A stretch of DNA of 63,814 nucleotides, the filler included, from Hausera hauseri (taxonomy: Eukaryota), in the NCBI GenBank assembly GCA_046269625.1. It is 11 parts of 11 records of this genome, joined end to end, with 100 filler letters (N's around TTAATTAATTAA, not from the genome) between each part and the next. Parts side by side here need not be neighbours in the genome. Positions count along the whole stretch, not along the records: positions 24,639 to 29,483 come from JBJURY010416144.1; 10 more parts are not named here. One strand, written 5' to 3'. A program made the position numbers and the translations under genes. The notes beneath the pieces were generated by a model, which was not told the DNA's origin, did not search any database, and saw nothing but the letters and a program-made list of their open reading frames with translations. Shown here one piece after another: positions 16,101 through 50,318 of this stretch (positions are counted from its first letter, which is position 1; each line of letters opens with the position of its first letter).

Positions 16101-16417
16101 AAAAGAACTATGAAGAACAACTAGAAGAGACTACAGAAGAAGGCACCCCAGAGATTGATGAGCATACGCTGCAAATTTCAGCGATTGAGTCAACAGAAGC
16201 TAAAGAAGATACAACAGGAGAGTCAGCAGTGGAACAAAAGGGGGAAGATGAAAAGGAACTAAATATGAAGGTAGAACAACTAAAAGATGAAGAGCTGCAC
16301 AACATTATTGAAGATTTAAAATCAGGGGTAGAAGAAAAGTTAAAGAAATGGAAAAAGTTTATGCTAGAAGATGAAAAATTGTATAGAGTTGGAAATGAAG
16401 AGAAAAGAAACATCTAA
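13042..16417 (+). mobile_element. pol: Ty3/gypsy pol (Arg-rich N-terminal extension, protease, RT, RNase H), family C; truncated before integrase
   Basis: CLVDTGAQVS; FCVDYRALN, TTLDARSGFW, PFGLK, YIDDILI; LYTDASEFAVGAVL, EKEAYAI, TDH, ADLLSR. Nonsense codon at 15542-15544 (YY*RF) and frameshifts near 13740-13845. Confidence 0.95.
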
Positions 16418-19500: not shown

Positions 19501-22500
19501 GGGTCATTCCATAATTTTTTCGACTCAGATCATTGTGGTGAGTCCGAATAAGCAGGTGTCCAAACCAGGGTCAGTCGAAAATTTTTTCGATTCGAATAAT
19601 TGAGGTAAATCCGAATACTCAGGTGTCCGGAAATGGGTCATTCCAAAAATTTTTTCGACTCAGATCATTGTGGTGAGCCGAGTATGCTTGCGTCCGAAAT
19701 AGGGTAAGTCCAAAATTTTTCTCGATTCAACTCACTGCTGTGAGTCCGAATATGCAGGTGTCCGGAACTGGGTCACTCCAAAATTTTTTTCGATTTGAAT
19801 AATTGCGGTAAGTCCTAATATGCAGGTTTCCGGAACTAGGTCAGTCCATATTTTTTTTCAACTCAGATCATTGTGGTGAGTCCGAATATGCAGTTGTCCA
19901 AAACACGGTCAGTACAAAATTTTTTTCGATTCGAATAACGGCCGTAAATCCAAATGAGCAGGTGTCCGGAACTGGGTCAGTCCATAATTTTTTTTGACCC
20001 AGATCATTGTGGTGAGTCCGAAAATTCATGTGTCCGAAACTGGGTCGGTCCAAAATTTTTTCTATTCAACACACTTCTGTGAGTCCGAATGTGCAGGTGT
20101 CCGGAACTGGGTCATTCCATTATTTTTTTTGACCCAGCTCATTGTGGTGAGCCCGAATATGCAGGTGTCCGGAACTGGGTCAGTCCATAATTTTTTTTAA
20201 CTCCGATCATTGTGGTGAGTCCGAATATGCAGGTGACAGGAACAGGGTCAGTTCAAAATTTTTTTCGACTCAACACACTGATGTGAGCCGAATATGCAGG
20301 TGTACGGAACTGGGTCAGTCCATAATTTTTTTTGACCCAGATCATTGTGGTGAGTTTTAATATGCAGGAGTACGAAACTATGTCAGCCTCAAATTTATTT
20401 CCAATCGAATAATTGCGGTAAGTCCTAATATCCAGACGTCCAGAACTGGTTAAGTTGAAAATTTTTCTAATTCGAAAAACTGTGGTGAGTCCGATTATGC
20501 CGATGTCCGGAACTTGGTCAGTCCACAATTATTTCGATTCAACTTATTGACGTGAGCCGAATATGCAGGTCTCCGGAACATGGTCAGTCCACAATTTTTT
20601 TCGATTCAACTTACTGACGTGAGTCCGAATATGCAGGTGTCCGGAACTGGGTCAGTCCAAAATTTTTTTGGATTCGTTTAATTGCGGAGTCCAAAAACGC
20701 AGGTGTCCGGAACTGGGTCTCTGCATAATTTTTTTCTACTCAGCTCATTGTGGTGAGTCCCAATATGCAGGTTACAGGAACAGGGTCAGGCAAAAATTTT
20801 TTCGATTCGAACAAATGAAGTAAACCCGAATATACAGGTGTCCGAAACTGGGTCAATCAATAAATTTTTTATACTCAGCTCATAGTGGTGATTCCGAATA
20901 TGCAGGTGTCCGGAACTAGGTCAGTCCAAAATTTTTTTCGATTCAAATCACTGACCTGTGCCGAATATGCAGGTGTCCGGAACTGGGTCAGTCCAAAATT
21001 TTTTTCACCTCAGAATATTGTGGGGAGTCCCAATATGCAGGTGTCCGGAAATTGGTCAGTCCAAAATTTTTCTCGATTCAACTCACTGACGTTAAACGAA
21101 TATGCAGGTGCCCGGTACTTGGTCAGTCCAAAATTTTTCTCGATTCATCTAACTGTCGTGAGTCCGAATATGCAGGTGTCCGGCACTATGTCATTGCAAT
21201 ATTTTTTTGGATTCAACACACTGACGTGAGCCGATTGTGCAAGTGTCCGGAACTGGGTCAGTCCAAAATTTTTTTCAATTCGTATAATTGCGGAGTCCAC
21301 AAACGCCGGTGTCCCGAACTGGGTCTCTGCATAAATTTTTTCTACTCAGCTCATTTTGGTTTGTCCGAAAACGCAGGTGCCCGGAACTGTGTCACTCCAT
21401 AATTTTTGTCTACTCAGCTCATTGTGGTGAGTCCCAATATGCAGGTTACAGGAACAGGGTCAGTCCAAAATTTTTTCGATTCGAATAATTGAAGTAAGGC
21501 CGAATATGCAGGTGTCCGGAATTGGGTCATTCCATAATTTTTCGACTCGGCACATTTTGGTGAGTCCGAATATGCAGGTGTCCGGAAGTGGGTCATTTTA
21601 TAATTTTTTTCGAGTCAGATCATTGTGGTGAGACCGAATATGCAGGTGTCTGGAACTGGGTCATTCCATAATTATTTCGACTCAGCTCGCTGTGGTTAGT
21701 CCGAATATGCAGGTGTCAGGAAGTGGGTCAGTCCACATTTTTATTCGATTCACTGACTTGAGCCGAATGTGCAAATGTCCGGAACTGGGTCAGTCGATAA
21801 TTATATTCCACTTAGATCATTGTGGTAAGTCCGAATATGCAGGTGTCCGGAACTGGGCCAGTCAATAATTTTTTTCTACTCATATCATTGTGGTGAGTCT
21901 GAATATGCAGGTGACAGGAACTGGGTCAGTCCAAAATTTTCTTCGATTCGTAAAATTGCGCTTTGTCCTAATATGCAGGAGTCCGAAACTGTGTCAGTCC
22001 AAATTTTTTTCGATTCGAATAATTACGGAGAGTCATAAAATGCAGGTGTCCGGAACTGTGTCACTCCATAATTTTTTTCTACTCAGCTCATTGTGGTGAG
22101 TCCCAATATGCAGGTTACAGGAACAGGGTCAGTCCAAAATTTTTATCGATTCGAACAAATGAAGTAAGTCCGAATATGCACGTGTCCGGAAGTGGGTCAT
22201 TCCATAATATTTTTCGAGTCAGATCATTGTGCTGAGACCGAATATGCAGGTGTCTGGAACTGGGTCAGTCCAAAATTTTTCTCGATTCAACACACTGACG
22301 TGAGCCGAATATGCAGGTGTCCGGAACTGGGTCAATCTATAATTTTTTTCACCCCAGATTATTGTGGTGTGTCCGAATATGCAGATGTCCGGAACTGGGT
22401 CAGTCCAAAATATTTTTCGATTCAATGCACTGACATGAGCCGAATATGCAGGTGTCTGGAACTGGGTCATTCCATAATTTTTTCGACTCAGCTCGCTGTG

Positions 22501-24538
22501 GTGAGTCCGAATATGCAAGTGCCCTGAACTGGGTCAGTCCACAATTTTATTCTATTCAACACACTGACTTGAGTCCGAATATGCAGGTGTCCGGAACTGG
22601 GTCAGTCAGTAATTTTTTTCACCCCAAATTATTGTAGTGAGTCCGAATATGCAGATGTCCGGAACTGGGTCAGTCCAAAGTTTTTTTTGTCTCAACACAC
22701 TGATGTGAGCCGAATATGCAGATGTCCGGAACTGTGTCAGACCAAAATTTTTTTCGATTCAACTGACTGACGTGAGTCCGAATATGCAGATGCCCGGAAC
22801 TGGGTCAGTTAAAAGTTTTTTTTGTCTCAACACACTGATGTGAGCCGAATTTGCATGTGTCCGGAACTGGGTCACTGGGTAATTTTTTTCACCCCAGATT
22901 ATTGTGGTGAGTCCGAATATGCAGATGTCCGGAACTGGGTCAGTCAAACATTTTTTTCCATTCAACTCACTGACGTGTGTGCGAGTATGCAGGTGTTTGG
23001 AACTGGGTCAGTCAGTAATTTTTTTCACCCCAAATTATTGTGGTGAGTCCGAATATGCAGATGTCCGGAACTGGGTCAGTCCAAAGTTTTTTATATTCAG
23101 CTCATAGATGTGAGTCCGAAAATGCAGGTGTCCGGAACTGGGTCAGTCCAAAATTTTTTTCGATTCGTATAATTGCGGAGTGTCCAAGAACCTCGGTGTC
23201 CGGAACTGGGTCACTCCATGATTTTTTCTACTTAGATCATTGTGGTCAATCCCAATATGTAGGTTACAGGAACAGGGTTAGTCCAAAATTTTTTTCGATT
23301 CGAAGAAATGAAGTAAGTCCGAATATGCAGGTGTCCGGAAGTGGGTCATTCCATAATTTTTTCGACTCAGATCATTTTGGTGAGACCGAATATGCAGGTG
23401 ACTGGAACTGGGTAATTCCATAATTTTTTCGACTCAGCTCGATGTTGTGAGTCCGAATATGCAGGTGTCAGGAAGTGGGTCAGTCCAAAATTTTTCTCGA
23501 TTCAAGTAAATGACGTGAGTCCGAAAATGCAGGTGTCCCGAACTGGGTCATTCCATAATTTTTTCGACTCAGCTCGATGTTGTGAGTCCGAATATGCAGA
23601 TGTCCGGAACTGGGTCAGTCCACAATTTTTTTTGTCTCAACACGCTGATGTGAGCCGAATATGCAGATGTCCGGAACTGTGTCAGACCAAAATTTTTTTC
23701 GATTCAATACACTGATGTAAGCCGAATTTGCAGGTGTCCGGAACTGGGTCACTCAGTAATTTTTTTCACCCCAGATTATTGTGGTGAGTCCAAATATGCA
23801 AATGTCCGGAACTGTGTCAGACCAAAATTTTTTTCGATTCAATACACTGATGTGAGCAGAATTTGCAGGTGTCCGGAACTGAGTCAGTCAGTAATTTTTT
23901 TCACCCCAGATTATTGTAGTGAGTCCGAATATGCAGGTGTCCGGAACTGAATCAGTCCAAAATTTTTTTCGATTCGTATAATTGCGGTAAGTCCTAATAT
24001 GCAGGTGTCCGAAACTGTGTCAGTCGAAATTTTTTTCGATTCGAATAATTGCGGAGAGTCCTAAAATGCAGATGTCCGGAACTGTGTCACTCCATAATTT
24101 TTTTCTACTCAGCTCATTATGGTGAGTCCCAATATGCAGGTTACAGGAACAGGGTCAGTCCAAAATTTTTTTCGATTCGAACAGATGAAGTAAGTCCGAA
24201 TATTCAGGTGTCCGGAAGTGGGTCATTCCATAATTTTTTTCGACTCAGACCACTGTGGTGAGACCGAATATGCAGGTGTCTGGAAGTGGGTCAGTCCAAA
24301 ATTTTTCTCGATTCAACTAACTGACGTGAGCCGGAATATGCAGATATCCGGAACTGGGTCAGTCCACAATTTTATTCTATTCAACACACTGACTTGAGTC
24401 CGAATATGCAGGTGTCCGGAACTGGGCCAGTCGGTAATTTTTTTCACCCCAAATTATTGTAGTGAGTCCGAATATGCAGATGTCCGGAACTGGGTCAGTC
24501 CACAATTTTTTTTGTCTCAACACGCTGATGTGAGCCGA
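16535..24538. repeat. Tandem satellite, ~67-70-bp monomer, roughly 115-120 copies, filling the whole contig
   Basis: Conserved GAGTCCGAATATGCAGGTGTCCGGAACTGGGTCAGTCCA-AAA-T(6-8) followed by a variable ~20-nt segment drawn from a few recurring types. Confidence 0.97.
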
Positions 24539-24638: not shown

Positions 24639-27600
24639 AAAAAATCCGCTATTAAATTATCTGTGCCAGAAATATGGCAGATTTTAAAGTTGAACGTTGA
24701 CAAGTACGAAATATGGCTTTCTTGTCGAAGTGATGGTTGCTTTATGTTCATTACATGAACGAGGGATTTGTGGTCTGTTTGAATGGTGAAAGACCGGGCG
24801 ATAAGTACATGTGAAGAAATTTTAAGAGCTAAAACGATGACCAGGCGTTCCCTATCGAAGGTGGAATAACGACATTCTTGTGGTTGGAGTTTACGTGAAA
24901 AGAATTCTAGTGGTTAATTTATTTCTTGAGATATTTGATGGTGAACCGCTCCGACGTCTGTGATTGATGAATCGGTTGTCAGGATGAGATCGGCATCAGG
25001 TTTTGGATAAGCCAAGATTTCAACCGTTTTAAGAATATTGCGGAGCTCATCAAACTGGTTTAAAAGTTCTGGAGTTCAATATAAAGGTTTCTTCTTTGGT
25101 TCTGCTCCTAGTTGAGCGAACGCAGCAGTTAACAGGGTGCACTGTGGTACATACTTATGAACGAAATACAAAGTCACGAGAAAGCTGCGCATATCAATTT
25201 TGTTTTTTTTGCAATTCGATATTTTGTAATTGCTGAATTCTATCAGTATGTGGGCTGACTGTAAGGCGTAATGATGCGGCCTAGGAAATTAACTTTCTTT
25301 TGAATCAATGTGCATTTTGCGAAGTTAACTTGTAAGTTGTTGTTGTTATACAGGCGTTTAAAAACAAGTTTGAGTTGTTTAGCGTGTTGCTTAGGTGAGG
25401 ATGATACTACCAGTATATCGTCGATATATGGTAAGAGAATGGTAGGCCTGAAAGGATAGAATCGATATGCCGTTGAAAAGTTTGGGCTGCGATCTTTAAG
25501 CCAAACGGTACGAAGGCATATTTAAAGAGACAAAATGGTGTAATTATCGCCGTTTTTTTGGATGTCTTCAGGCGCTACTGGTATTTGATGGTAGGCTTTT
25601 TCTAAGTCTATAGTGGAGTAGATTGTAGTTTTATGCAACGAATGTAAGATGTCTTTTATCAAAGGTAAAGAGTTAGCATCCATGATGGCGACATGATTAT
25701 GTTGACGATCATCGCCGCACGGTCGGAATGTACCATGTTTTTTGGTTACCACATGAAGTGGTGAAGCCCATGGTGACTTTGAACGGTGGATTATTCCTGC
25801 TTGTTCAAGTAACGTGAATTTAGATTGGACTGCATGTCGACGACGTGGTGATAGTGGTCTGAGTTTTTGCCTGATTGGCCGAGGATTCTTTGTGATGATG
25901 TGATAAAATGTCGAGCTAGTTGGTCTAAAAGTGGGGTCCTTTGTTATCGTGTGGCAGCAGGACTTAGTTATGTATTGGTGGGTTTCTTGACTTAATGAGG
26001 CAAATGATGTGGTTAGTAAATTAGATGGTAGATCAATGGCAGAACTGGATATGGTGGGTATTGAACTGTCTGCATCGTCTTTGTCAACGTTTTCTACTTT
26101 GTTACCGTTTGATGGGAATATAAAATTATCAAAATTAGTAGTGTTAAATTCATATTTGAATTTAAATTAGGTAACGACGTTTTTAGTATAGGCCCTACAA
26201 ACGAGGCAGGCTGTGCAACTGATGGAGGGTTATCTGTATATGTTGCACTTACTTGTTTGTTTCTAACTAATTTACTATGTCTACAGTCTACTAGGAGGTT
26301 GTAGAAAGATAAAAAATCGAAGCCAAGTATTGGTGACTGTATAGGTTACGATGAAGGTCCAGGTGAAAATATCAGGAAAAGGCTGTAACATGAACGAGAT
26401 TTCGGACGTGCCGCATATACGTAATTCTTGGCCATTAGCTGTATATAATTTCTTGTCTGACGAGGAAAGTGTTTCGATTTTAGTAGACAGAGGCAGAAAA
26501 GATACTGTGATCATGAGTTGATTAAAAAATTAATCAGTTGAGTGGGCTTAGTTGTTATTGAAGCATTGAGAGTAAATACGGCATAAGTACGTCTGTTACG
26601 GTGGAGATATTTGCCTGTGCCAGCATGCATAGAAACATCTGGCAGCTTTTTTTATCTGAAGTACAGGACTTAAGTTGTTGGAAGTAATAGGCTGTGAGGA
26701 ATTGGAATGGCCGACGACGGTACAACCGGCAATGCAGTTGCGCGTTTTGATGCTAAATTTATTATTATATATACTAACGATTTCAGGTCATCGGAAACTA
26801 GGCGCATAAAACCTACATCCTAAACAGCATTTATTAGTATTATTTTTGAATTTGGTGTGATAGTAACACACCATCGGTCTCGCAGGCGACCTCGCACGTC
26901 TCGAATTTTGAGACGAAGAGCGGCTATGGCTCACATCAAAACGATTCCACCTCGGTATTTTCAGGGTATCTATTTTTGACGTGAGTAATGAGATTGTCTG
27001 ATATATTGGCGTTTTAGGTACGTAAAGAATTTATTTCCTTGTTCAAATTTGATATTTCGTTAATCTTTTGTGTCGTTGACGTTTGTAACGTAGCGGCGAT
27101 TAATGGCGTTGATTGTGAATGTAGTATTTCGTGACTTTTATTAGCTAATTGTGCCAGTTTTTGTAGTGTCTCTGTGTCCTCGATTATTGCTAGGAGTACA
27201 CGAATATCTCTTGGTAGAAACTTCAAAAAGTATATGCGCAGTAAATCAACGTTATTCGCATGGTTGACATTCAAAGTGCTCAACTGAGTTAAGGCGGTCT
27301 GAAGGAACTCCGAAGGTTTTAAATTTCCTATAGTGTTATTATTAAAATATTTTTAAATGATATTGTCTAAAGAAGCTTCGTGATTTTTAAGACTTAATTA
27401 AACAGGGAATTGTATGGGTCGCTGCTTTAAAAGACTTTTGACAAGTTGGAAAGCTGTGATTTTATATGTGGTGTCAGGCGAATAAAAAGGCTGTTTGCCT
27501 TAAGAAAAACGTCAATGATGTTGTTGGATTTTAGCCATGAATCATGAAATCCCAGCCATGTTCGACTGGAATATCATTTGTCAATGAAATATTCTACACC

Positions 27601-27980
27601 AGGTAAGTTGAAGGTAAATGACGGAAGTGAAGCTGAATTTAGAGCTACGTTGATAGTGGGAACGTCGGCGAGGTCTTGTTGGTATTTAGGCGAGGTTTTC
27701 GGATCAGACCCGCCGAGTAGACGAAGATGGATAGTTAGAAGAAGCGTGGACAATCTGAATGTATGAGGTGCAAGTATTTCTGATGATAGGAAAAAGATGC
27801 CGTTATAAGAAAGTCGGAAATTGGTAAATTTGGTATGGTGTGTTAACACATCAGACAAGTTTTCGACCGTGGCTGTATAATTTGCATGACATTTGTGTAC
27901 CTGTTGATTGTGAAAAAAGAAAGCGAGTTGGATGAAACTGTCGAAAACGCCAGGAGAATGTAGTGGCAGAGTAGAGGCAT
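24639..27980 (-). mobile_element. Ty3/gypsy element (family B, CsRn1-like), decayed: Ubl-gag, protease, RT, RNase H
   Basis: LYTANGQELRICG (protease region); SPWASPLHVV, RPCGD, STIDLEKAYHQIPVAPEDI, YIDDILV; gag LRIYFLKFLPRDIRVLL..LAQLA; C-x2-H-x9-C-x3-C motif near 26820-26870. Confidence 0.9.
27709..27935 (-). CDS. Ubiquitin-like domain fused N-terminally to Gag (copy 1)
   Basis: LAFFFHNQQVHKCHANYTATVENLSDVL..FRLSYNGIFF..STLLLTIHLRLLGG versus ubiquitin TIENV..RLIFAG..STLHLVLRLRGG; in frame with gag EYFIDK*YSSRTWL. Confidence 0.75.
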
Positions 27981-30048
27981 CGCCAGGTTCCAGGTAAATT
28001 GGTGCCCGGTTTATCCAAGCGAGAAACTAACCATCAAATTCGAAACCGGACAATCCCCGCCCGTTAGTGCCGGGGTTTTAGAATTCGAATATTTGCTTAT
28101 TTCTCGTGTTACTTTTAATGATATTTTATGGCGTTAAATGCGATATAAAGGATGTTTCTTTGGCCGCCTAATTTCTCGTCACTGGATTTCGAGTCAAGAA
28201 TATTAGATTATGGTAATCTCAAGAAAACTTTTAAAATATTGGTTACCTTCTCATCAGTTTGAAAGATATTATGTCTCAATGTTTGAGATTTCAAAACCAA
28301 AATGCCGATGAAAATGCAATTATATTTGTTTTTATTGGGTCGTGTATTTTCTAAAGCTTGGTTATTTAACACAACATTGTCCATGCTTCTCAAAGTGCTG
28401 ACATATAAAACTCCAGAATCGATACATCTATCCTGTGGTGAATCCAACCACTGAGAATTAAGAATGGGTTCAGATTTTAACGAAACAAAAAACCGCCGTT
28501 GTTACATTTGTTTAAAGTTGTGCAAAGATGCCTTTGGTGATTTTTATATCTCTGGAGTGGCCTGACCAGTGATTATCATGTGGGAGTCTATGTGAATTAA
28601 ACTTTCCTGTAAACAGTTCAATATGTTGCTTCTCTAGTAAGTTCAGTAGCTTTTGTATTACTGTGTTGCTTCGTCAGGTTGTCTCGCTCCCTTTCTCTAA
28701 ATCTAGTTTTGCGTATGTTGTATCAATTATTGCCAGCTAACTCCAGCCCCGTAGAACTTGTGACGGCGTTTTTCTAAAGATTAAAATTGTTTTGTTGTTT
28801 TCAAAACTTCACTGAGAATTCGATATCTCGTTGTTCCGACAATTTGCTGCGTTTTTAGTAAAATAAATAATATGACATTTACATAAATCGTTACTTCGCA
28901 TATATTCTGTTTTGTTCTTGGTAAAGAGCTGAGGAGTTGAAGTCCAGGATTCGAAGCTCCAATGTTTTGACGCAAGGCTCAAAATATTTATAAATCTAAA
29001 CTGTTTTAAAAACAATGGAATATTTTCTGCTTCACAAACAAACATTTGATTTACCTATTTAATATATATATATATTCTTAGTTTCTAAATTATATTCTAT
29101 TTTCAGAAAATATTTTAATTTCAAGTTTTCGGCCAGGTTGAAAAAAAAATGTTTTGTAACATTCGTATTAATGTTAACGAAATATGTTATGTTATTTGCT
29201 AATGACACTAGAATCACACCATTCCCATGTAAGCGCCACTCTCTGTTTTTAGCCAACCACAGAAGGCATCTCATGCTCACCATATTAGCAACTCATTGAT
29301 TGTAGGACCTTATTTCTTGTCTTGCAAGTTTACTTTCTTCCATCACCTCTTCTCTCACAGATTGATTTCTTCATATAAGCATTATTCTACAACTTTGCAT
29401 CCTATGCTCATCCAACACATTTTTCAGGGCTGTCAGTGGCGTATGTGTGAGTTGATGACCTGCGCTAGGCGTCACGCTAAATTNNNNNNNNNNNNNNNNN
29501 NNNNNNNNNNNNNNNNNNNNNNNNNNNTTAATTAATTAANNNNNNNNNNNNNNNNNNNNNNNNNNNNNNNNNNNNNNNNNNNNCGATACTACATTTCCGA
29601 CCGACAAGCGACGTTGAGTGGCAAACAAGTGCCGATGGCGCGAAAATATATTTTGTTTTAATATTGTACATATGATTTACAGTTTTGAATTTTCGTTCTA
29701 ATAAATCGATATATTCTGCCATTTTAGTTACGATTTTAGACATTTTGTTTTCCAAATAGTTTATCACTGATCATTTGGATTTTTGGTGCAGTCAATTTAT
29801 TTCGAAATCCTCCGTTTTAGACATTTTTATTTGAAATTTCGAATTTATATCATATGCGCGAGCTATTTAGTGCACGTATTATATTTATCATTTACAATTG
29901 GTGTCAGAGTTCTTTTTATAAAACTACTGTTTTATAACTGCTTGAAAGCCGAATCGCAACTTGCGGAATTTGCATCAGAGTATCACGAAACCGTGGAGAC
30001 CGACCTGGGTTAAGGCAAAAGTCGTTTGTAAATTATGATGAAAACAAA

Positions 30049-32600
30049 ATGTATGGCATTATATCAATTGAAGATTCCGACAGCGATAGTATCATTATTA
30101 TTACTGATGATGAAAACGAAGGTAGTGCCACGACATTTTCTGACCTGAATGAGACAACATCTAGCCCTGTTAAATCCGATGTTATATCCACACAGATTAA
30201 TAAGTTTCCTAGCATTATTATTGACAAATTGTCCGATCTATGTGATGATATAAGCAACGACAATCCGGATGATAACTCAAATGACATTGTTACGACAGGT
30301 AATCATGAGGAAATAAACGATGTGGCACTCACCAGAGACTGAAACCGCTGACAGTGTAAATGAAGCCAATCCAACGTCGCACGAAAGTCAGAACAATGAA
30401 AATACAGATAATTCTGCTTCTAGTTTACCGGAAGATATCAATTCCAACAAATCGAATGTTGATAGTGCACTAACGAGAGATATCGATTCGACATCTTCCG
30501 TGTCGGCCATAGGCAAAAATTGGCTCCATTTCCCCATGAAACGACGGAAACCGCCGAAAAACGCCATTCTCGACGATTTGGACAGTACGTTTTACGTTGA
30601 AAAGGTTCTGGATGTTCGGGAAATTCGTGAAAACTCATGGGAAAGGGAGGAAAGTATCAATTTCCCATCAATGATTGATGATTTTATTGCCGAACCATAT
30701 GTTGTTTAACATAAGGACCGTGTCCAAATGACTCATTCGGCTATTAATCCACAAAATGACAAGTTACCGAATTCCAAAATCATTAACGCCGTCTTCTAAG
30801 GAAAGTTTTCTCGAATTGGATAATGCCTACTTAAACAACCTAAGAACCAAATCTGCAGCATACTGTGTTCTTCCAAATGAACAATTAAGTCATATACCAG
30901 AAGTCTATCGAAGTATGCCCGAAACCGATTTGATTCAAAGCGATGCTCAATGCGATATCGACGTGTCGAGCAGGGATGTTATGACATCATGAGTCATCAC
31001 AACCCAATGTACACAAATAATGAGTATGAATCTATGGCTGAAAGTCAGGTAAATCTGCTTGACCCAAGCGACGAAATTAGACGGTCACGACTTATCAACG
31101 CTAAGCAAAATTTTATAATTCTGGATAATCCAATCCTCCGGTCACATGATGGGTTGAGACTCAGTCCATTGGGTTTACACAAAATACCCGGCTTTTTAGA
31201 TATGGATATGTTACATGATTCGTCGCTCGACTTTCCTGATTATCGACGTCCAGACTGCTCGAATTCTATGGGAAATGGTGACGACAGTGATCATTTATCG
31301 AAGAAAAGCAGGAACTTGTCGAACTCGAGAGATAGTAGTTCAATTGCTGCACGAAGATTCGGTGGACAAACTTCGTCTGATGAAAGTGGTCAGAAAAGAG
31401 ATGGCTTAAAATGTAAATATGAGGACAGTGAAATGAATAACATTTCCAATGAGATTCATTATTACGACCAAAGTAACAAAGATAATGCACAAAGTAAAAG
31501 TCAGAGAATTGGTGAAGATACATATGAGTTCATTCATCCCTCAGTCACTCCAAAGTAGCGCTCCTGGTCATCCAATGCTATCAAATTCTTATGACAACGC
31601 ATCATCGTGTGTTAGCGTAGTAACGAATTTCGGTTGGACCAGTTATGACGATGATGATCTGTACAGTGATTATCCGGACTATGCGAAAAAGACCAATTCC
31701 TCCAATCATGCAAAGAAAAATTGGTCTTCAAAGCGGTCGGAGACAAATGACATAATTAGTAGCCATAATCATATCGATGAGGACGATTCGGATTTGGATT
31801 GTATTCGGATTCATAGTGATCTGTCGGATTACAGTGATAACCCTCCGGTATCTGACTTAGACAACGAAACTGATACTGAATATCGATCGACTGACATGGG
31901 TCATGCAGAGTTTATGAATGACAATCAATATAAACAGATTTATAAATTTTCCCCGGGTAATATGCTGAATTCTGAATATTACGGCAAACGAGCCTTGGAC
32001 AAAAATGCTTTTGAGGCTCGTGGGAATGACATATTTAGATGATATGGACATGACTGGCAGCATATTCGCTTCTCATCCGTAGGCCAATAATGGATGTCAA
32101 AAAAACGAAGACTGTGACATTCATTCTCTACCGTCGAGCAGAAAAGATGACTACAGTTCGACTTGCAGAAAACCTCCTCAGAAGGATTGTGATAGGATTC
32201 TTAGTTCAAGACTTCCCAGCGTTGCTTTGGTGCAAATACCTGATTTTAGTGATTTTAAAATACCGAGAGATGTTATGAAACAGAATATTATCGCAAAGAA
32301 CGGAAAATCACGGGAGATTTTTAGTCTATCATTCAGATTTGCCTGAGTATGCAATGTCAGTGTCAAGAATTCCCTTAATAATAACGCCAGCAACATTCGC
32401 TTTCATAAAAATGTAGATAGTGAAAGAAAGCAAGTCACAAATGGGAACGACAGTGATGCAATGAGTGGGTATGCTGGAGATGTTGCTTGGTCCGTGTACG
32501 ATAGTGATGAAGATGACCAACCTCATAAAAATAGATTTATTCAACTTTATTTGGATTATAAGATGGGCAACGGGCTACTTTCCTAACTGTTGTCAACAGA
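30049..32600 (+). pseudogene. Fragmented host gene: acidic/Ser-rich protein with partially deleted chromodomain
   Basis: Chain of overlapping low-complexity ORFs in shifting frames. FYVEKVLDVRE..ENSWEREESINFPSMIDDF matches both ends of a chromodomain but lacks the YLVKWKGY core. Confidence 0.55.
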
Positions 32601-33515
32601 TGATGGGGATACAGCTAATTCTGACAATTGATTCAATAAATTGACAAAAAAATTCCCCACAAAAAAGTCAAACAAAAACCGAACATTTACGAATCTCTTT
32701 GGAAAACTAGTGAATCCAAGACAATTTTGGTTCAGTTTCCTTTCTGCTTGTTTTGGAATGCTCAGCTTATTGTTGGGTTTAAGTTATAAAATATGCCGTG
32801 AGGAACTGAAAGGCTGGTGTGAAGCAATGAATTTCAACGAACTGAATGTCAGATGGCCGGTTATCTTACCCCCTGTTCTTGTGATCGGTTATACACTTTG
32901 GCTTCGACACAGTGTAAATAATTGCTCAACTAAATTTAACGTGCTTTTGTCAAGTATTTTATACCCCTATCCACAGTCTTTATTTTTTCATCTCTCGTTA
33001 CAATCGGCGTTATTTTCTATTTCATTATTCGTTCTCGTTGTCCTCTTTGCAAATCCTTTAATGATGGTCGAACGTTTTTTATTGCAACCGAACGTTTCTA
33101 TTCTAACAATCTATCAACTGTTGAAGGAGTACCAGTCTTCGAATAGATCAATCGTTGTTCAAAGACATCCTGATCCCCTAGTTCAAGCTGAATCAGTCTC
33201 GCCTTCAGCAACTTCATACGTTTGCTCAGTTTTTTTTCACACGGCGCAGAGCCCTCTAACTATCTCGTGTTCTGCAACCGCCATGGACCAAGGATTAAGA
33301 AAAAGGTCAGTGAATTTGTTACATTGCTGTTTAACCATACAAACCAAGGCCATGATTGACGGTCCAAAAATTATGCATGACCCTGTTGTTAAAATAGAAC
33401 TCTATCGTCATAATCCTACTTTATGCCCAAGGGACGTTAGAAAACTAGACGCAGTCAAACGTCAACTATGCCGGAGACGCAGAATGCCCTTTCTACCGTT
33501 AACCACCCTGCAATT

Positions 33516-36068
33516 TAGTGCTCACCGTGCCGGGACGGAAATCCCGACCGCCAACCTTGCACCGGTCGGTCGGACGGCGCCTTCGACGTCGGCCCAACGT
33601 CACGCCCCCAGGCGCACCACTGCTCCCACTTTCCATTTTCTTTTTTAACAATATACATATCTACACCCTTAATACAACACATCCACACATTTCCACCTTG
33701 CAGACCTGCATTTCGTCCTTACTTAATTTTCCAGACTTTTACCTCATCCATAACGGCGCTATCATACATCTCAACGGAACTTAACCTTCTTTTTCAAATC
33801 ACACTTGCTTCAACATACATCTCCGTATCCGTGGTGGTATGAACTCTCTGCCACTTACTGACACCATGGATACAACTACAAAAAAGGTAATACCCATTCT
33901 GTACTACTCCAGTCCAAACCATCCACCTACTTCTCACAAAAATCCTATCAATACTTCTCAACATGCACTGAATACTTTATAGATAATAAAAAGCCCAGAA
34001 AAACTTGGCTCCACTTCCATAAATTCTGGTTACAGTCCAACGATATCACAGACTCGTTATCCAAAGCCCATAACTTACTTTATCTTCTCCCAAACTCTAT
34101 AAAGGTCTCAATCCATAACTTACTGGACATCTTTCAACACTCTGACCCTTATACCAAATTGTTCGATGCTGTATTGAAACAGATAGAACCATCAATTGAC
34201 TCCATAATGCAACGCTTCTTTAACGAAAACGCAATGGGAGCACAAAAACCCAGTGACTTCCTATGCATCTCGTTGGCTCACTTACGTACTCTCGGAGTCA
34301 CTAAGCAGCACAACCCAGATCTTCTGCACCACTATTTTCTTAATGCGCTACCTATCCAATTCCGGGCCTTACTTACCGTGGTGGGAGACTCCGCGCCGCT
34401 TGAAAAATTGGCCTAATTGGCCGATAGGACACACGATGTCCTACATGTAAATTCTGCACTAGTCGTTTCATCAGTAGTTGCCGCTAACGATAATACATGT
34501 ATAGAACAAAAACTTAATCAGCTACGTGCTGAAAACATTGCAATACATGCAACAATCAACAACATCAATAATAAATTGAACAAATTGTCTCTGTCCCGCC
34601 GAGGGGGTTTTGCCGCAGACCGTACCCGTTCTGCGTCACGAAACCGCTCACCATCGCCTGCGCGTTCGTCGATTTGCTACTACCACAGCAGATTCAACAT
34701 TAATGCTCAGAAGTGCTGCCTAGGCTGCAAGTTCTATAATAAGAATTTTTCCTCTGACACCGTTATCTGTATCTACCATGCAAGGTTCAAAAATCAGGCG
34801 CGTAGATGTATTCCAGGCTGCACTTTTAAATCTAATACGAACGACGGACGTAATGCCTTCCCTTCTAATAGTCGTCCTAGTTCACCCTTCCAAAAAACTA
34901 AGTTTGGCGCAAGCAGTCACGGCAAACTCTAGCGATAGCACTAATTCACTTTCTGAACGTCAACACGTCTCTTTTGCAGTCTTTACTCTAAAGGCTGCAA
35001 TCACTGTTCCTACAACACAATCTGTTGACTTCCTCATTGATACAGGTTCAGCGATTTCTCTATTACCACAAACCTTTCCTACATAAAATTTTCCATTCAA
35101 GATCAAATCTTTATACACTGCTTCAGGCCAACCGCTACGCATTTCTGGCACAGCTAAATTATCTTTCACTTTACCAAATTTCTCCTTACCTTTCCACTGG
35201 ACGTTCACAGTCGCTAACGTCCAGTCGGCAATTCTAGGATCTGACTTTCTCTCACATTGTAATCTGCTGGTTGACTGCAGTCAGCGATGTTTGAGGAACG
35301 GCACCACTGGTAGCATTTCTGGATATGTAAATAGCGTTTCGACTACCGGACAGTCGACCGGAATGCGGAAGTCAATCTTAAAATAGTCAACGAATGATTC
35401 GATTTTTTATAACAATAATTCAATTCGTAAATTTTTAAATAATAATACTGACATTCGATCGAAGTTCATTGTCGATACTTGTGGTACTGCCACCAACGCT
35501 AACTCATTCGACAAAAATACCTTAGCCAATACCATTTTCAATTTAACCATCTTACACCAAATACCACTTGACTGCACATCACCAAACAACTCACACATTG
35601 CATCTACTACTCAAGCCGTTTCATTACTTCCACCAAATCTCTCACAGTTACCTACAACTTTACAGCAATTTGTCAACACATCATGTCCACGCGTACTTAA
35701 AAAAGACCTTACTTTTACTCCCGCAAACATCACTTTACATTACATAGTCACACAGCACCAACGTCCGATACGCCAAAAAGTACGGCATCTGTCACTTCGT
35801 CGTAGACAGGCCGTAAAAGCCGAATTTCCTGAGCTCGAACGTTCCAGCATAGTACGCCGTTCCAAATTTCCTTGGTCATCACCGTTACATGTATAAAAAA
35901 GGACAGTACTTTGAGACAATGTGGTGACTACCGACAGCTAAACAACGTGACTATCATGGACGCGTATCCTTTACCACTTATCAAGGATATCCTGCATCGT
36001 CTTAACTCAACCACCATCTATTCAACCATTGATTTAGCTAAAGCATACCATCAAATACCGGTAGCACC
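33516..36068 (+). mobile_element. Ty3/gypsy element (family B), decayed: leader, Ubl-gag with two CHCC motifs, protease, RT start
   Basis: FLIDTGSAISLLP; LRQCGDYRQLN, STIDLAKAYHQIPV; gag KPSDFL, FLNALPIQFRALL; CYYHSRFNINAQKCCLGC and CIYHARFKNQARRCIPGC. Confidence 0.92.
33630..33838 (+). pseudogene. Ubiquitin-like domain upstream of/fused to Gag (copy 2)
   Basis: LSIFFFNNIHIYTLNTTHPHISTLQTCISSLLNFPDFYLIHNGAII..*..FNIHLRIRGG in one frame with one stop at 33782-84; a frameshift separates it from the gag core. Confidence 0.7.
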
Positions 36069-38620: not shown

Positions 38621-38936
38621 AGCGCCGATATTTTATGTCCATTGATTAGGATTTCGGGGGAGATACTATATTCTCCCACAATTGTCTTAATTCTTCCTTG
38701 GGATATAATTCGTTATTTTCTATGTGCAATTCCTCCACTTCATGTGTACTAATTAATGCTTCTAGATTGTTAGTGTGTAATTCCATATTCTGGAAGGTTT
38801 TTAACCTTTGATTATCCCAAACTGTTTACCTAGTTTCTATATTCCGAGGTTTTCTCGGAGAATATAACATCTTTGGACCATCTGTAGATTGTCAATAACA
38901 CATTTTTTGTAGGATGCCGTAACGTTTCGTTCCTTT

Positions 38937-44965: not shown

Positions 44966-45210
44966 ATGCCCGTCTGCACTGAATCCCCTTTCTCTTATTT
45001 TTTTTCAATAATAAACATGTGTATACATTGAGGGTTGCATACAAACATATTACACACATCCTTTATTCTGTATTGTCTTCCTTCTCCGGCTCCTCCGATT
45101 TTTATTGCATGCACAATGGCCTAACTCTGTTACCTTCCGACTCTCTGTCATCTTTTGCATCCGGGAAACATTCAATGATTCTTATTATCCATTTTTGTAT
45201 CCGTGGTGGA
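44966..45210 (+). CDS. Ubiquitin-like domain fused in frame to Gag (copy 3)
   Basis: FFFNNKHVYTLRV..DFYCMHNGLTL..SMILIIHFCIRGG continues without a stop into SDLDP..DFFLDKTNSRRTWLQFH (gag). The ATG at 44966 joins this frame if one T is restored in the T8 run at 44998-45005. Confidence 0.72.
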
Positions 45211-48200
45211 TCAGATCTTGACCCTTCTGCCGAAAACTTTATCAAAACCAGATCTGGTCGTCGTCCTGCCGACTCCACACCAAATACATCTCCAAGTCTC
45301 CCTTGCACGGATTTTTTTCTCGATAAGACGAATTCGCGTCGTACATGGTTACAATTCCATTTGCAGTGGCTTAAAGCCAATCATATCACAGACTCCTTTT
45401 GCGGGCAAACAGCTTGCTGCTACTACTTCCAGCTAATATCAAGCAGCAAATAAATAATCTGGCCGATATACTAACCTCTTCAAATCCATATGATATGCTT
45501 TATGAGTCAATTCTGCATATCCCCGACCCTTCCTTTGACAGCATAATTCAAAAATACTTTAATAAACACGCCATCGGAAATATAAAAACCGTCGGATTTC
45601 CTTAAAACTGCAATCTCGCAACTGAGCTCCTTAGGCGTCACTCCTATAAACAATGCCGATCTTCTTCGTCGGTATTTTCTTTCATTATTGCCAACCTCCA
45701 TCAGAGCGCCGCTCACGGTAGCAGATGACTCAACGGCCCTTGCAAAGTTCGCATTATTAGCAGACAAAAGTTTTGACATTTTTCAATCTAATAGTTCACA
45801 ACCAGTAGCTGCAGCAACCGCTCACACACCGTCATACACATATAACACTTCATTTTCACAACAGCTGTATATGATGCAGAAGCAAGTCGACACACTCCAA
45901 CAGGCAATTTCTGCGATCGCAGCCAAATTCAGTGACTTATCCGTGCCTCGAGGAAACGAAAACCGTTTTTCGCGCAATCGTAGCTTTTCCAGGCACTCAT
46001 CTTGGTCCAAATCTCAAGATTGTAGAATAATTTTCTTCTATCACAATAAATGCAGTAGAGAAGCATAAAACTGTGTTTTAGGCTGTCGATTTTACGATGA
46101 ACGTTATGCAGTAGACAACCCAATCTTCATCCATCACACAAAGTATCAATGCAAAGCTATGTCATGTGTGCTAGAATGCAAATATTATAAAAAGAATTCT
46201 AGTTTTTCTCCATTTTCTTCGCCTCTTCGTACTCATCATTCATGTTCTTTTTCCCAACAATCCCCAAAAAACCAGTAATGCCACCAGATGTCACGGCACA
46301 TTCTGCTAAAGGCAATATCGCTCAAACTTCTGGCCGTTTCGACACCGCCTCTGCAGTCTTTCTGTTGAAAGCTGAAATGTTATCTGGAGACGCCTCACAC
46401 ATAGACTTCCCTATCGATTCGGCAGCTGCCTTTTCACTTCTTCCTTTGTCTTTCGCTCCTACATCTAACACAGTTTTCTCTACTCCACTCTTCACTGCCT
46501 GTAGTCAACCCTGGAACATTGTAGGTATCACTAACCTGTCTTTCACATTTTTAACCTTCCAGGGAAATTCTCCTGGAAATTTCATATAGCCAACATCAGA
46601 TCGCCAATAATAGGCTCCGATTTTCTAGCTGCATACGATTTGCTAGTCGACTGCAAGCATAGATGCCTCCTGCGTAAAACGCCGTTGCAAATTTCAACAA
46701 ATGGTCACCAAACGAGCAGTCGGACACTTTGTTTTCCTCTGTTCATTCAAATGTCAATTTGACTTGCTGCTCATCGGTTGATAACAACACGCCTAATAAT
46801 TCATCAATATTTTCAATTTCATCAAATTTGAACAAATCAATGTTGAAACAGTCGATTGAACCGAATATCATTAACAAAGTGTTTCGTGATTCTATATCGT
46901 TTACAGCCACCGAGCCTTCCACTAATATGCTCGCATCATTCTTATCGCTGGAATCCAATCTTAAATCCTGCATCAAAACGTCTTGCTTCCGCACTCTTAA
47001 AAAGAACATCAATTTCAAGCCGCATTCTACAGCTTATCACCACATAGTCACCGAACACCAAAGACCTATTAGACAAAAGGTAAGGCCACTGTCACCTCGC
47101 AGACGAAAAGCCGTTGAATTAGAGTTTAATGAACTCGAAAAGGCGGGCATTATTCGAAGATCTAAATCATCATGGGCTTCACCATTGCATGTAGCAACAA
47201 AGAAGGGTGGCAATTACAGACCATGTATTGACTATCGTTAGTTAAATAATTTAACAATCCTGGATGCTTACCCTCTACCTCTTATAAATGACATCCTATA
47301 CAGTCTTACCAACACTAACACGAACTCCACAATCGACTTGTATAAAGCATATCATCAAATTCCGGTTGCACCTGATGATATTCCAAAAACTGCTACTATA
47401 ACTCCATTTGGCCTCTACTAATATATCGTTATGACATTTGGTTTACGTAGTGCCTCTGAAACATTCCAACGGCACATTGATACCGTACTCTCAGGCCTTG
47501 ATTTCGCTTATCCATACATTGATGACATATTAGTTGCCTCTACCTCTGTCAAAAAACATCAAAAACACCTTTGTATCATTTTTCACGGACCACATTACAG
47601 CAGTTTGCAAGTCAACTTCTTCAAGTATCATTTCTTTCAAAAAAGTGTAAATTTTCTAAGTCACGTCGTTACTCCTCATGGCCACTCTCCACAACCGGAT
47701 CGACTACAACAATTAAAAAACATAACTCTACCAACGACTACCACGGATATGAAAAGCTTCTTAGGTACACTCTACTTCATCCACAAATACGTACCTCATT
47801 GTTCTGAGCTCACAGCACCTTTTGCACATTTATCATCCAGGAAAAGAGGCAGATGATTCACTGGACTCCTGATTTAGTCACTAAGTTTGATCGCTTACGC
47901 GATGGCCTAAAAACCGTCGAAATACTGGCCTATATAAAGCCCAATGCAGATCTTATACTTACAACCTATTCCTTGAACACAGCCACCGGTGCAGTACTAC
48001 ACCAAATTTCCAACGGGGTTAATGAACCATTAGAATTTTACTCTAGGAAGTTTAGTCAACCCGAAAGCCGTTATTCGACATTTGACCGTAAGTTACTCGC
48101 CATAGTTCTGGCAATAAAACATTTTAAACACCCACTTCTCTCTCGTCCATTGGTGATTCAAACTGATCACAAGCCTCTCCTGCACATCATGTTGTTAAAA

Positions 48201-49813
48201 CGGCTATCAACAAGGAAAGAGAGACATATACCATACCTGTCTACGTTCAACTTTGTTTTGGAATATATTTCAGGCACAGACAACTTGGTGGCAGATTTTT
48301 TATTGAGATCGGTTGGCTACATCACAGTTGAGCCGATTTTCTCATCCGAAGTTTTAAAAACACATCTACCGTCTGTTGATTTCCTTAGTTCCTTCAAATT
48401 TTCGAGATCCTCAATGGCATTGCTTATGATACGTCGAACACCGGTAATAAAAAGATCATTCTAGCACCACCTTTACAAAAGCCAGCTTTCGTTCATACGC
48501 ATTTACTCCACCATCCAGGGTCGAAAGCAGCCTTTCGCCTGCTTCAACGTCATGTAGTTTAGCCATCAATGCGCAAAGATGTACAGGGCTGGGTTAAGGA
48601 ATGTGTAGCCTGTCAAAAATACAAAATCAATAAACATCTCAAACCGCCGCTTTATCATTTCCATTGTACATCACGTTTCCATACGGTTCATCTTGATCTC
48701 GTTTGTCCTTTACTTTCTGACAACGGATAGCAATATATCCTTACTATAATGGATCGTGCTTCTGGCTGGCCGAAAGTCGTTCCTCTCCGTTCAGCGAACA
48801 CTGATTCAGTAGCTGATGCATTTATAAAAATTTGGATCAGTCGTTTTGGTTCCCCACGTTACATAATAACGGATCAATGTCCACAATTTGAATTGGATCT
48901 CTTCAAATCACTCATCAAACACCTTAGGATATCCAATTTCCACACAACTCCATATCATCTTCAAGCAAATGGCCTCCTTGAAAGATTTCATTGAACAATG
49001 AAAGTCTCTTTAAAAATCTTGACTGACACTCATCGAAATTGGACGTCCATTCTGCAATTTGTCCCACTATGGTGGCGCAACACACCTTCGACAACTACCG
49101 GTTGTGCTCCAGCCAAGGCACTTTTTGGGACTCCAATTCGGGGCTTATTTGAACTTTCTGATCTCGACGACAACCCTACAAACAAAAACATTCGTGCAGC
49201 ACAATCTCACTTCGTCGAGGTCAGCTCAGATTTATTCTATCGTCTTTTCAACAACGAAAAATCTTATATTCCGAAGGATTTATACTCCGCCAAGTTTGTG
49301 TGGCTGAAGGATCAATTGCTTTCTGGTTTTAGACCTCAATATGTTGGCCCATACAAACTGCTCAATCTTTCATCTCACACAGCAACCATCTTATGCCAAG
49401 ATAAACCTTACAACGTTGATATTTCGAACTTGAAACCCTCTTTCTTCATTGACGATATTCCAGATGCGAATTCTACTTCCAACTCAAACTCAGCTCGCAC
49501 TCCTACCGATTTTCAAAATGACTTTTTATCACCTCCAATTGCATTGTCTTTTTTGTTTGCCTCATCTTCGCTATCATCTCCATCAAAAAACATCACTAAA
49601 CAGCCCAGCACAAATCCATCAAGTAAGGTACGCAGAGTGACATTTAGTACCTGCAGCAAAGAAAAATTCTTTGATGGCACACAACGCCAGACCCGTACTG
49701 AAACCGAATAGGAACCAAACATTACTCCTTATTGCGATTCATTGTATTCATCCATATTATTTTCATTATTTTTTATTACATATTTTCTCTTCTGCCACGG
49801 ACGTGGGAGGTGA

Positions 49814-50104
49814 TGTTGTGCAACGGTCGCGGGTGAAACTCGTTGTCTCACCGAAATGCTGGTTATCAATCTCCAATTTCTCACATTCAGTAAAACAGAA
49901 AATCTGCAAATTCTCTACAAAGGCCAGAATGTAACTTTAATCAGAAATTGCAATCTCTCCGACATGTGACTCGTTCAGGATCATCTATCAAATCGTCTAT
50001 CAAATCAACGTAACTATAAAGTCAACGATGAAGGACTATTATTTTGTTGAATCATCAAAACTGCTTCAAAACCAAATAAACTCTTCATCATTCTATTTAC
50101 AACG
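49814..50104 (+). repeat. 3' LTR (~290 bp) of family B element
   Basis: Follows purine tract GGGAGGTGA; starts TGTTGTG; TATAAA at ~50015, AATAAA at ~50075; ends TACAACG (imperfect inverted terminus). Confidence 0.6.
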
Positions 50105-50318
50105 TCGTTTCAATATGTGGTTACGTCATCTCACACGTCTACAATATTCTCTTCTAACAGGCAGTGCAGTTCATCTCTTATCAAATTGCGTCGTGAATTT
50201 ATCAAGAGATGACAATATNNNNNNNNNNNNNNNNNNNNNNNNNNNNNNNNNNNNNNNNNNNNTTAATTAATTAANNNNNNNNNNNNNNNNNNNNNNNNNN
50301 NNNNNNNNNNNNNNNNNN

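Follow-up and report, generated by a model that had tools for sequence, protein, structure and literature searches.

Why should the Gag protein of a retrotransposon stand behind a ubiquitin-like segment that ends in Gly-Gly, and what might such a junction do? The question is raised by a stretch of 63,814 nucleotides from Hausera hauseri (GCA_046269625.1; 11 parts joined end to end with filler between them), hereafter the window, which holds three copies of a domain-Gag element (A, B and C), all broken. In our reading, ORF1 of this CsRn1-like family consists of a variable upstream polypeptide, a domain with a predicted ubiquitin fold, Gly-Gly and Gag, with a likely host deubiquitinase cut behind the Gly-Gly; we give this roughly a two-in-three chance of being correct.

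Table 1 Features of the three copies, with positions counted along the whole window
Feature	Position	Strand	Remarks
Copy A upstream leader	27946..28526	(-)	Still repeated
Copy A ubiquitin-like domain	27709..27945	(-)	Ends RLLGG; GG codons 27709-27714
Copy A linker, GG to capsid core	27601..27708	(-)	36 aa, without Met
Copy A Gag: capsid, coiled coil, CHCC knuckle	26704..27600	(-)	tblastn with intact relatives; CHCC pattern
Copy A pol remnant: RT and RNase H	24692..25896	(-)	YIDD at 25428; Pfam RVT_1, RT_RNaseH
Copy B upstream region	29899..33648	(+)	...TACA precedes a PBS-like TGGTGTCAGA; ORFs over the next 3.7 kb
Copy B ubiquitin-like domain	33629..33838	(+)	Ends RIRGG, then Met; one in-frame stop
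Copy B Gag (DUF7041-like) and protease	33964..35266	(+)	
Copy C ubiquitin-like domain	44983..45210	(+)	Ends CIRGG
Copy C Gag to likely 3' LTR	45211..50218	(+)	RT 47515; RNase H 47862-48248; integrase 48491-48958
Copy C 3' end		(+)	GPY about 49346; purine tract 49803; likely 3' LTR from 49814

The element and its three copies

The Ty3/gypsy order Gag-PR-RT-RH-IN was found, pieced together from the three broken copies, with the protease in B (PR, E 0.01; DTG near 35030), RT and RNase H in A and C, and integrase after RNase H in C (rve, E 3.5e-8); the contig of copy A stops short of integrase. The Gag motif CX2HX9CX3C (CHCC), which PMC2582038 gives as defining the CsRn1 clade, is present in all eight relatives compared (two copies in seven of them), twice in B (34675 and 34768), once in A and in decayed form in C, and the GPY motif, named as a trait of the clade in PMC3630058, follows the integrase core in copy C. 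For the intact relative P0008, residues 127-283 are modelled with a retroviral-type capsid fold (VIA Z 8.8-8.9 to MLV capsid: Z 8.9 and rmsd 2.7 over 80 aa for CA-CTD, Z 8.8 and rmsd 9.9 over 148 aa for whole CA), values that are middling for a helical domain and are backed by DUF7041 matches (E 1e-4 to 1e-2). Copy A is decayed, and belongs to a Ty3/gypsy element whose Gag has a CHCC motif of the CsRn1 type.

As far as the accounts in PMC2582038 and PMC3630058 go, CsRn1, PwRn1, AgCR1-14 and CsRn1_Cv1 share with our element the knuckle, the PR-RT-RH-IN order, GPY, a weak DUF7041 match and a Gag of about 300 aa, whereas tandem knuckles, an in-frame ubiquitin-fold domain with Gly-Gly before Gag, and long upstream polypeptides occur only here; the word 'ubiquitin' is absent from the main text of both papers. 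The tRNA-Trp primer-binding site of the clade had no sense-strand match upstream of A, B or C, using a 10-nt pattern on copies whose 5' ends may be missing, and the PBS-like site of copy B differs from that type. No LTR pairs lie on the three short contigs; C has the purine tract and a TG start, and B the PBS-like site.

In copy A, the minus-strand frame 27577-28026 translates as ...TVENL...RLSYNG...STLLLTIHLRLLGG, and the domain of about 75 aa has no internal stops and no in-frame ATG back as far as the preceding stop, while about 15 aa directly ahead of it can be aligned to the relative P0005. The domain was thought to lie directly in frame with the capsid; it is in frame, but a linker intervenes (Table 1). 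Decay sets in soon afterwards, with a stop 44 codons past the Gly-Gly, three stops within the first 187 codons and frameshifts beyond, and the first knuckle starts at 26868 in a Gag frame broken in this way. In copy C, the frame of the domain carries on into the N-terminus of the capsid, with 146 codons free of stops.

A predicted ubiquitin fold distant from ubiquitin in sequence

TVENL and RLSYNG of copy A had been placed at the positions of ubiquitin TIENV and RLIFAG, and hhalign confirmed this register if a 2-residue gap is allowed. The preliminary description also took copy A to be the copy most similar to ubiquitin, which does not hold: identities are 14 (A), 16 (B), 13 (C) and 17 (relative P0013) of 76, within an overall range of 11-17, and the best local score belongs to P0008 (p<0.001, shuffles), whereas the copy A segment alone was not significant against the ubiquitin unit (p=0.087, 1000 shuffles). 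Taken by itself, copy A matched no ubiquitin family in Pfam (PF00240, Ubl clan), no PDB entry by sequence and no NCBIfam entry; its best VIA Z of 4.5 was to an unrelated chain, its Atlas feature scores of 0.84-0.87 are leads only, and its predicted structure is poor (pLDDT 53), with top Foldseek rows that are nonetheless ubiquitin variants (E 0.4). The ubiquitin-like call is thus significant because of the family, namely the fold of an intact relative and the invariant Gly-Gly, and not because of copy A alone.

A beta-grasp prediction, proposed earlier as a check, was obtained for P0008 and, at low confidence, for copy A, and the P0008 comparisons support a ubiquitin-fold domain fused to Ty3/gypsy Gag, at the level of models. 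The AF2 model of residues 15-91 has the order strand-strand-helix-strand-strand-strand. With the Atlas model of residues 12-95, all ten rows listed have TM 0.78-0.82, eight of them being named ubiquitin, Rad60-SLD or Ubiquitin_2; the Foldseek matches listed are all ubiquitin-fold (best E 9.5e-4), and VIA aligns the model to ubiquitin with Z 10.0 and rmsd 2.0 over 74 aa.

Profile searches point the same way. The family profile matched polyubiquitin across seven repeats (E 3.8e-9), a deeper-profile PDB search gave ubiquitin, FUBI or a ubiquitin design in seven of ten matches (E 0.04-1.5), and in an earlier PDB search four of eight matches were SDE2, ISG15 or ubiquitin-like. The best sequence matches were Ub-eS31 (E 0.04), FUBI-eS30 (0.07) and SDE2 (0.16), none being significant or above the Pfam cut-off. 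Sequence similarity to ubiquitin is weak: in shuffle tests 3 of 11 segments reached p<0.05, a number that fell to 2 once the tail was removed, and the hhalign probability was 1-2%; PF00240 had no match in the three window segments or five relatives. At positions taken from alignments, the Ile44 equivalent is Ile, and the Lys48 equivalent Lys, in one of eight lineages each. As judged by sequence, then, the domain is not ubiquitin proper (PF00240), given its Pfam score, identity, Ile44 patch and Lys48 position. Word-index protein searches returned nothing besides a query member, and the relatives' DNA had no match in viral contigs or JGI metagenomes.

SDE2 at first seemed a likely donor of the domain; the deeper profile ranked ubiquitin and FUBI higher, and we therefore assign no donor. 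The GGKGG motif of SDE2, as given in PMC13572447, and the Sde2 C-terminal domain are absent here, and the residues past the Gly-Gly differ.

The Gly-Gly junction and the maturation of Gag

A profile search gave seven matches, five of which are open proteins with the domain, Gly-Gly and Gag, and one of which (P0010) has a Gag N-terminus without the domain. It should be noted that the profile included the domain and the Gly-Gly, so that relatives without the domain were disfavoured, that the ORFs of the intact relatives are predictions, and that residue comparisons were taken from whole-protein alignments. With these points in mind, the in-frame architecture is present in eight lineages: the ubiquitin-like domain ahead of Gag is real and family-wide. 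Conservation of the Gly-Gly in further copies, proposed as a check, was borne out, as it is retained in all eight lineages, copy B included, although the domains are mostly only 14-39% identical between them. It makes up two of only three invariant domain columns (seven lineages), and all six GG dipeptides in the 3149 positions of five proteins fall at the domain end, none elsewhere. The residue at -5 is R or K in 7/8 lineages and that at -4 is hydrophobic in 8/8, giving a basic-hydrophobic-x-GG tail. In P0008 the last strand spans 85-91 and the Gly-Gly 94-95; in all eight lineages the di-Gly comes directly after the last strand and the next residue is not Pro (P1': S, M, S, S, M, G, N, T), with SD, MN, MG, GP, ND and TG as the residue pairs found there. 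P1' of P0008 is Asn, a destabilising N-terminal residue, which tells against the cleavage reading given below.

Between the Gly-Gly and the capsid core, six of eight lineages have no Met, and Gag therefore needs the fusion; P0005 and copy B have Met immediately past the Gly-Gly. The protein after the Gly-Gly measures 304-345 aa (six proteins), close to ordinary CsRn1 ORF1 (267 aa in PMC3630058; roughly 880-980 nt in table rows of PMC2582038), and the domain is therefore an add-on.

Because of the Gly-Gly in every lineage, the tail, the lack of Pro after it and the scarcity of Met before the capsid core, maturation of Gag by a host deubiquitinase is the best reading and a likely one. A host USP/UCH-type enzyme would cut after the Gly-Gly, as in SDE2, FUBI and pestivirus ubiquitin-NS3, giving Gag a defined N-terminus freed from whatever is fused in front, and the upstream piece, now ending in Gly-Gly, would likely be removed through the diGly C-degron pathway. 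As precedents, SDE2 and FAU are cut at the diGly and the piece ending in it is cleared by KLHDC2 (PMC8013793), cellular hydrolases cut internal ubiquitin off pestivirus NS3 (PMC8310069), and SDE2 is cleaved by USP5 while human USP7 failed to cut it (PMC13572447), so such cuts are enzyme-specific. Since the domain has weak sequence similarity to ubiquitin, a given deubiquitinase may not accept it.

An unlikely alternative is that the domain remains part of the protein and serves its folding, solubility or localisation, as a type-II Ubl replacing the matrix domain, with the Gly-Gly as a flexible hinge or a site for the element's own aspartic protease. Many Ubl domains are indeed never cleaved (the VIA rows include tubulin cofactors, Dsk2 and parkin), the domain's surface residues are poorly conserved, and the element does encode a protease. 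A hinge, however, would not need Gly-Gly exactly at the ubiquitin C-terminal position in 8/8 lineages while the linker that follows varies (18-37 aa in relatives); retropepsins favour hydrophobic P1/P1' residues; and a capsid bearing the 630 upstream residues of P0011 would presumably be hard to assemble.

We consider it quite unlikely that what counts is the domain itself once released, whether as a conjugatable modifier, a decoy jamming host ubiquitin enzymes, or an ESCRT or ubiquitin-receptor handle for Gag. Cleavage would expose a Gly-Gly end, and the residue at the Arg72 position is basic in 7/8 lineages. Free SDE2-Ubl binds the USP5 ZnF-UBP (PMC13572447), and fusing ubiquitin to Gag can make up for a missing late domain (PMC2958808). 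That rescue of budding, however, required L8/I44 and used C-terminal ubiquitin without the Gly-Gly, whereas Ile44 is largely lost here and a cleaved N-terminal domain would leave Gag, which makes the earlier idea of a budding role weak. The free modifier or decoy, also suggested before, is not favoured by the divergence between lineages or the loss of Lys48, and no envelope gene was seen between integrase and the LTR-like 3' end of copy C.

Parallels and the sequence ahead of the domain

Natural and engineered proteins offer parallels to this arrangement. Pestivirus inserts likewise put a host-derived ubiquitin-type unit into a polyprotein, before a viral protein, as a signal for cellular hydrolases, in cytopathic strains often within mosaic inserts (PMC8310069, PMC13517609); they were captured recently, and by an RNA virus, whereas the domain here is deeply diverged and fixed across a retrotransposon family, before the capsid protein. 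SDE2, FUBI-eS30 and ubiquitin-eS31 also consist of a ubiquitin-fold domain, Gly-Gly and then a working protein (PMC13572447, PMC8013793). The 2A-like peptides of non-LTR retrotransposons split one frame into two products through a host-run signal, in LINEs by ribosomal skipping (PMC3708506) in contrast to the folded domain and putative protease cut of our LTR element. Engineered Gag-ubiquitin fusions have the fold in the same chain as Gag (PMC2958808), but are artificial and C-terminal, lack the Gly-Gly and depend on L8/I44, of which Ile44 is lost here, while the present fusion is natural and N-terminal and keeps its Gly-Gly. The papers searched hold no description of Ubl-Gag in Ty3/gypsy elements.

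If our reading is true, this is a natural, family-wide case of an LTR retrotransposon that relies on host deubiquitinases for Gag maturation, where its own protease or a start codon might have served, in parallel to the ubiquitin inserts of pestiviruses and the 2A peptides of LINEs. Transposition would then depend on a host enzyme, gene fragments could be captured by a simple route with Gag preserved, and a deeply diverged Ubl group would be added to the candidate deubiquitinase substrates.

The domain is usually internal, preceded by a variable upstream polypeptide, and new here are the 19-630 residues ahead of it, which in the predicted protein of one relative include pieces of two host genes, DIS3L1 and CNOT1. 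In copy B, 97% of the 3.7 kb upstream is tiled by same-strand ORFs reaching up to the domain, as in a decayed ORF, of which three sense frames had no PDB match and none matched Pfam. The 4.2-kb upstream region of copy C is not ORF-rich overall (17/200 shuffles reach the observed level), and its last 1 kb, an interval picked after inspection, is (0/200). No Pfam family was found in six frames at E 0.05 upstream of A, B or C, and single upstream ORFs gave sub-threshold Pfam matches only.

Cutting and disposal of the upstream piece might confer tolerance of captured host sequence ahead of Gag. We tentatively extend this: the Ubl may be a domesticated, host-cleaved linker that uncouples Gag, leaving the 5' end of the first ORF as an open slot for host mRNA fragments that supply the start codon and are translated, released, and destroyed or used. 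The DIS3L1 and CNOT1 pieces and the copy B frame could be examples of such cargo, and released cargo might act, for instance, as dominant-negative pieces of the RNA-decay machinery.

It is very unlikely, by contrast, that the domain merely remains from a host Ub, FUBI or SDE2 mRNA once captured, supplying only a start codon or 5' sequence, the long upstream fusions being artefacts of gene prediction or nested insertion. Gag could start at the Met in P0005 and copy B, the PBS-like site of copy B may belong to a different element, and the P0004 and P0011 fusions are known as predicted proteins. A relic, however, does not fit the lineages without such a Met or the maintenance of fold and Gly-Gly across deep divergence, and P0004, whose 996 aa take up 2988 of 3554 contig bases, lies on a contig too short to hold DIS3L1 and CNOT1 as whole genes as well; this view may be right about the cargo alone. 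The preliminary description had overlooked the upstream polypeptide, including the host-gene fragments in one relative.

Copy A and the elements of the window

The contigs of the window are short, eukaryotic and joined by N-linkers, and copies A, B and C of the element sit on three of them. These copies are one kind of LTR retrotransposon, all decayed; when they are pooled, Gag, protease, RT, RNase H, integrase and a GPY motif are seen, and a purine tract precedes a TG-starting end. The Gag of elements with the ubiquitin-like domain (Ubl-Gag) carries the CX2HX9CX3C knuckle, the defining trait of the CsRn1 clade according to PMC2582038 and PMC3630058, and has it in doubled form. Both this clade and a DIS3L1-type fragment found in a relative make it likely that the host is an animal. 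A contrast within the window is a Ty3/gypsy Gag-Pol of the ordinary CCHC type, with Ty3_capsid, two zf-CCHC, PR, RT and a Met of its own, in which neither Pfam nor tblastn with the three window domains showed a ubiquitin-like domain.

In copy A, a ubiquitin-like segment ending in RLLGG lies ahead of the capsid and is free of stops, in agreement with the preliminary description, and its TVENL and RLSYNG align with ubiquitin TIENV and RLIFAG when a 2-residue gap is allowed. The segment had also been considered directly in frame with the capsid, which holds for the frame and not for the joining, as GG and the start of the capsid are separated by a 36-aa linker; a stop is first met 44 codons past GG, and no in-frame ATG is found between the domain and the preceding stop. 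Nor is copy A clearly the copy most similar to ubiquitin (identities of 76: 14 for A, 16 for B, 13 for C). Taken alone, its segment has no Pfam or PDB match, and its similarity to ubiquitin is not significant (p=0.087 against shuffles). Further copies carrying the Ubl-GG-capsid junction exist beyond copy A. A single 455-nt contig of the sequencing run X1, with 67 differences, spans domain, GG and capsid start, and the summed depth of X1 contigs is 428-594 over 27555-28040 vs 4-5 at 28527-29012, where it should be considered that depth is not copy number and that the window may itself derive from X1.

Features of the window
Feature	Position	Strand
RNase H/integrase remnant	3900-6919	minus
Ordinary CCHC Gag-Pol	11846-16417	plus
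Tandem array	16535-24500	
Copy A, decayed LTR retrotransposon	24.6-28.5 kb	minus
Copy A ubiquitin-like segment	27709-27945	minus
Copy B PBS-like site	29899	
Copy B upstream ORFs	29938-32586	plus
Copy B last upstream ORF	32632-33648	plus
Copy B, decayed LTR retrotransposon	33.6-36.1 kb	plus
Separate LTR-element remnant	37112-40598	minus
Copy C, decayed LTR retrotransposon	45.0-50.2 kb	plus
Tandem duplication	50300-54480	minus
E1-like gene, N-terminal part	55353-55838	plus

Relatives and the invariant Gly-Gly

A profile from the three window N-termini was compared with 1.84 billion representatives (E<=0.001); as it included the ubiquitin-like domain, relatives having the domain were favoured. 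It yielded seven matches. Five (P0004, P0005, P0006, P0008 and P0009) are predicted Ubl-GG-Gag proteins with an open frame, one is a polyubiquitin (E 3.8e-9 as the sum of its 7 repeats), and one (P0010) is a Gag N-terminus fused to leucine-rich repeats, without the domain. P0011-P0014 were added through cluster look-up. P0010 and P0014 combine the family's Gag N-terminal region with leucine-rich repeats, lack the domain and end in GG at the C-terminus; each is possibly a domesticated or chimeric gene.

Together with the window copies, eight lineages have the domain, with pairwise identities of mostly 14-39% (44% for the 39-aa fragment P0012). All eight keep GG, the conservation that had been proposed as a check. 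It provides two of only three invariant columns (7 lineages aligned, 61 columns fully occupied), and the six GG dipeptides in 3149 positions of the five full proteins are all at the domain-end site. Ubl-GG-Gag is a real feature; that the domain is a relic or a prediction artefact we regard as very improbable.

In full-text searches of mostly open-access literature, no publication was found in which the Gag of a retrotransposon is preceded by a ubiquitin-like domain. The accessible portions of PMC2582038, PMC3630058, PMC3248453 and PMC12440569 do not contain the word 'ubiquitin', and those of PMC6431247 and PMC3383448 have it only in unrelated places. Prior annotation, e.g. in Repbase, GyDB or Dfam entries, is possible.

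Fold of the domain

The models predict the ubiquitin fold for the domain, which is not ubiquitin itself. Residues 12-95 of P0008 (Atlas model) reach TM 0.78-0.82 over ~80 residues to the 10 neighbours listed, eight of which bear ubiquitin-type names. An AF2 model of P0008, built from 8 sequences (mean pLDDT 63.5; 48-71 per block within the domain), places the beta-grasp element order at 15-91 and GG at 94-95, followed by a helical capsid, a coiled coil and two knuckles. With this model, all Foldseek matches listed are ubiquitin-fold (best E 9.5e-4), and the VIA scores are Z 10.2 for ISG15, Z 10.0 for ubiquitin (rmsd 2.0, 74 aa) and Z 9.1 for FUBI, with Z 8.8-8.9 for MLV capsid over residues 127-283. 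Sequence profile matches are weak and in the same direction (SDE2 E 0.16, ISG15 0.37; in a second profile, Ub-eS31 0.04, FUBI-eS30 0.07). The proposed AlphaFold check supports a beta-grasp in the relative P0008; for copy A itself the model (three sequences) is poor (pLDDT 53), and its top Foldseek matches are likewise ubiquitin variants, none significant.

Probable cleavage after Gly-Gly and the upstream sequence

The domain is mostly not N-terminal, being preceded by 19, 97, 133, 268 or ~630 predicted residues. Between GG and the capsid core, 6/8 lineages have no Met, and in the five distinct relatives without it, a Met comes only 102-263 residues further downstream; copy B and P0005 have Met immediately after GG. 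The linker following GG is 18 to 37 aa among relatives, and the sequence downstream of GG (304-345 aa in six proteins) is of the same size as plain CsRn1 Gag. We consider it probable (roughly 0.65) that the first ORF would be translated from an upstream start, that the domain would fold and that a host DUB would cut after GG, so that Gag would begin at one defined residue regardless of upstream sequence; cleavage is inferred here, as are the enzyme responsible and what becomes of the upstream piece. The domain tail reads basic-hydrophobic-x-G-G (basic residue in 7/8 lineages) and the residue after GG is never Pro. A domain that stays uncleaved as an accessory is unlikely.

Precedents for cleavage are available. 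Endogenous DUBs cut SDE2 and FAU at diGly, after which KLHDC2 removes the piece that ends in GG (PMC8013793), human SDE2 is cut by USP5 via its Ubl and not by USP7 (PMC13572447), pestivirus NS3 is freed of an internal ubiquitin by cellular hydrolases (PMC8310069), and pestivirus ubiquitin-type inserts are often mosaic (PMC13517609). LINE 2A peptides offer a functional parallel (PMC3708506). That the domain acts after release as a modifier or decoy, or serves as an ESCRT handle, as suggested previously, is somewhat less likely still than an uncleaved domain: this role is weakened because ubiquitin-driven budding depends on L8/I44 and the fusion tested was C-terminal, without GG (PMC2958808), while alignments show the Ile44 position kept in 1/8 lineages, as is that of Lys48.

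The 630 upstream residues predicted for P0011 include DIS3L1 residues 45-340 (E 4e-25), without the catalytic domain, and ~106 residues of CNOT1 (E 1e-16). A variant of it, P0004, is 98% identical and differs by a 2-residue indel that keeps the frame, and as its predicted 996 aa take up 2988 of 3554 contig bases, these pieces are fragments rather than adjoining whole genes. In copy B, same-strand ORFs of at least 70 aa cover 97% of the 3.7 kb from the PBS-like site to the domain, as compared with 20% in shuffles (0/200 reach the observed value) and 39% on the opposite strand. Its last upstream ORF (338 aa, hydrophobic) reaches into the beginning of the domain in a different frame, so that there is no space for a non-coding LTR between them; the PBS-like site may be part of another element. 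This upstream content has no match in Pfam or PDB. Tentatively, the 5' part of the first ORF, ahead of Ubl-GG-Gag, could be a slot open to host mRNA fragments.

The upstream ORFs of copy B are acidic, with several hydrophobic-then-acidic stretches, which we take to resemble SUMO-interacting motifs. Elsewhere in the window, the separate LTR-element remnant holds protease and RT, preceded in the same orientation by an ORF of 432 aa that matches the chuvirus-type fusion glycoprotein of Monjiviricetes (PF24664, E 2.5e-40). The RNase H/integrase remnant comes from a further LTR element and is followed by extra ORF sequence. The 8-kb tandem array has a 67-68 bp unit with higher-order spacing of 135/202 bp. 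The 2.31-kb tandem duplication (80-89% identical) holds a fragment of protein-primed DNA polymerase B (PF03175, E 4.6e-6) and is presumably Polinton-like. The E1-like gene (ThiF, E 2.9e-18) lies on its own small contig, apart from the Ubl-Gag elements.
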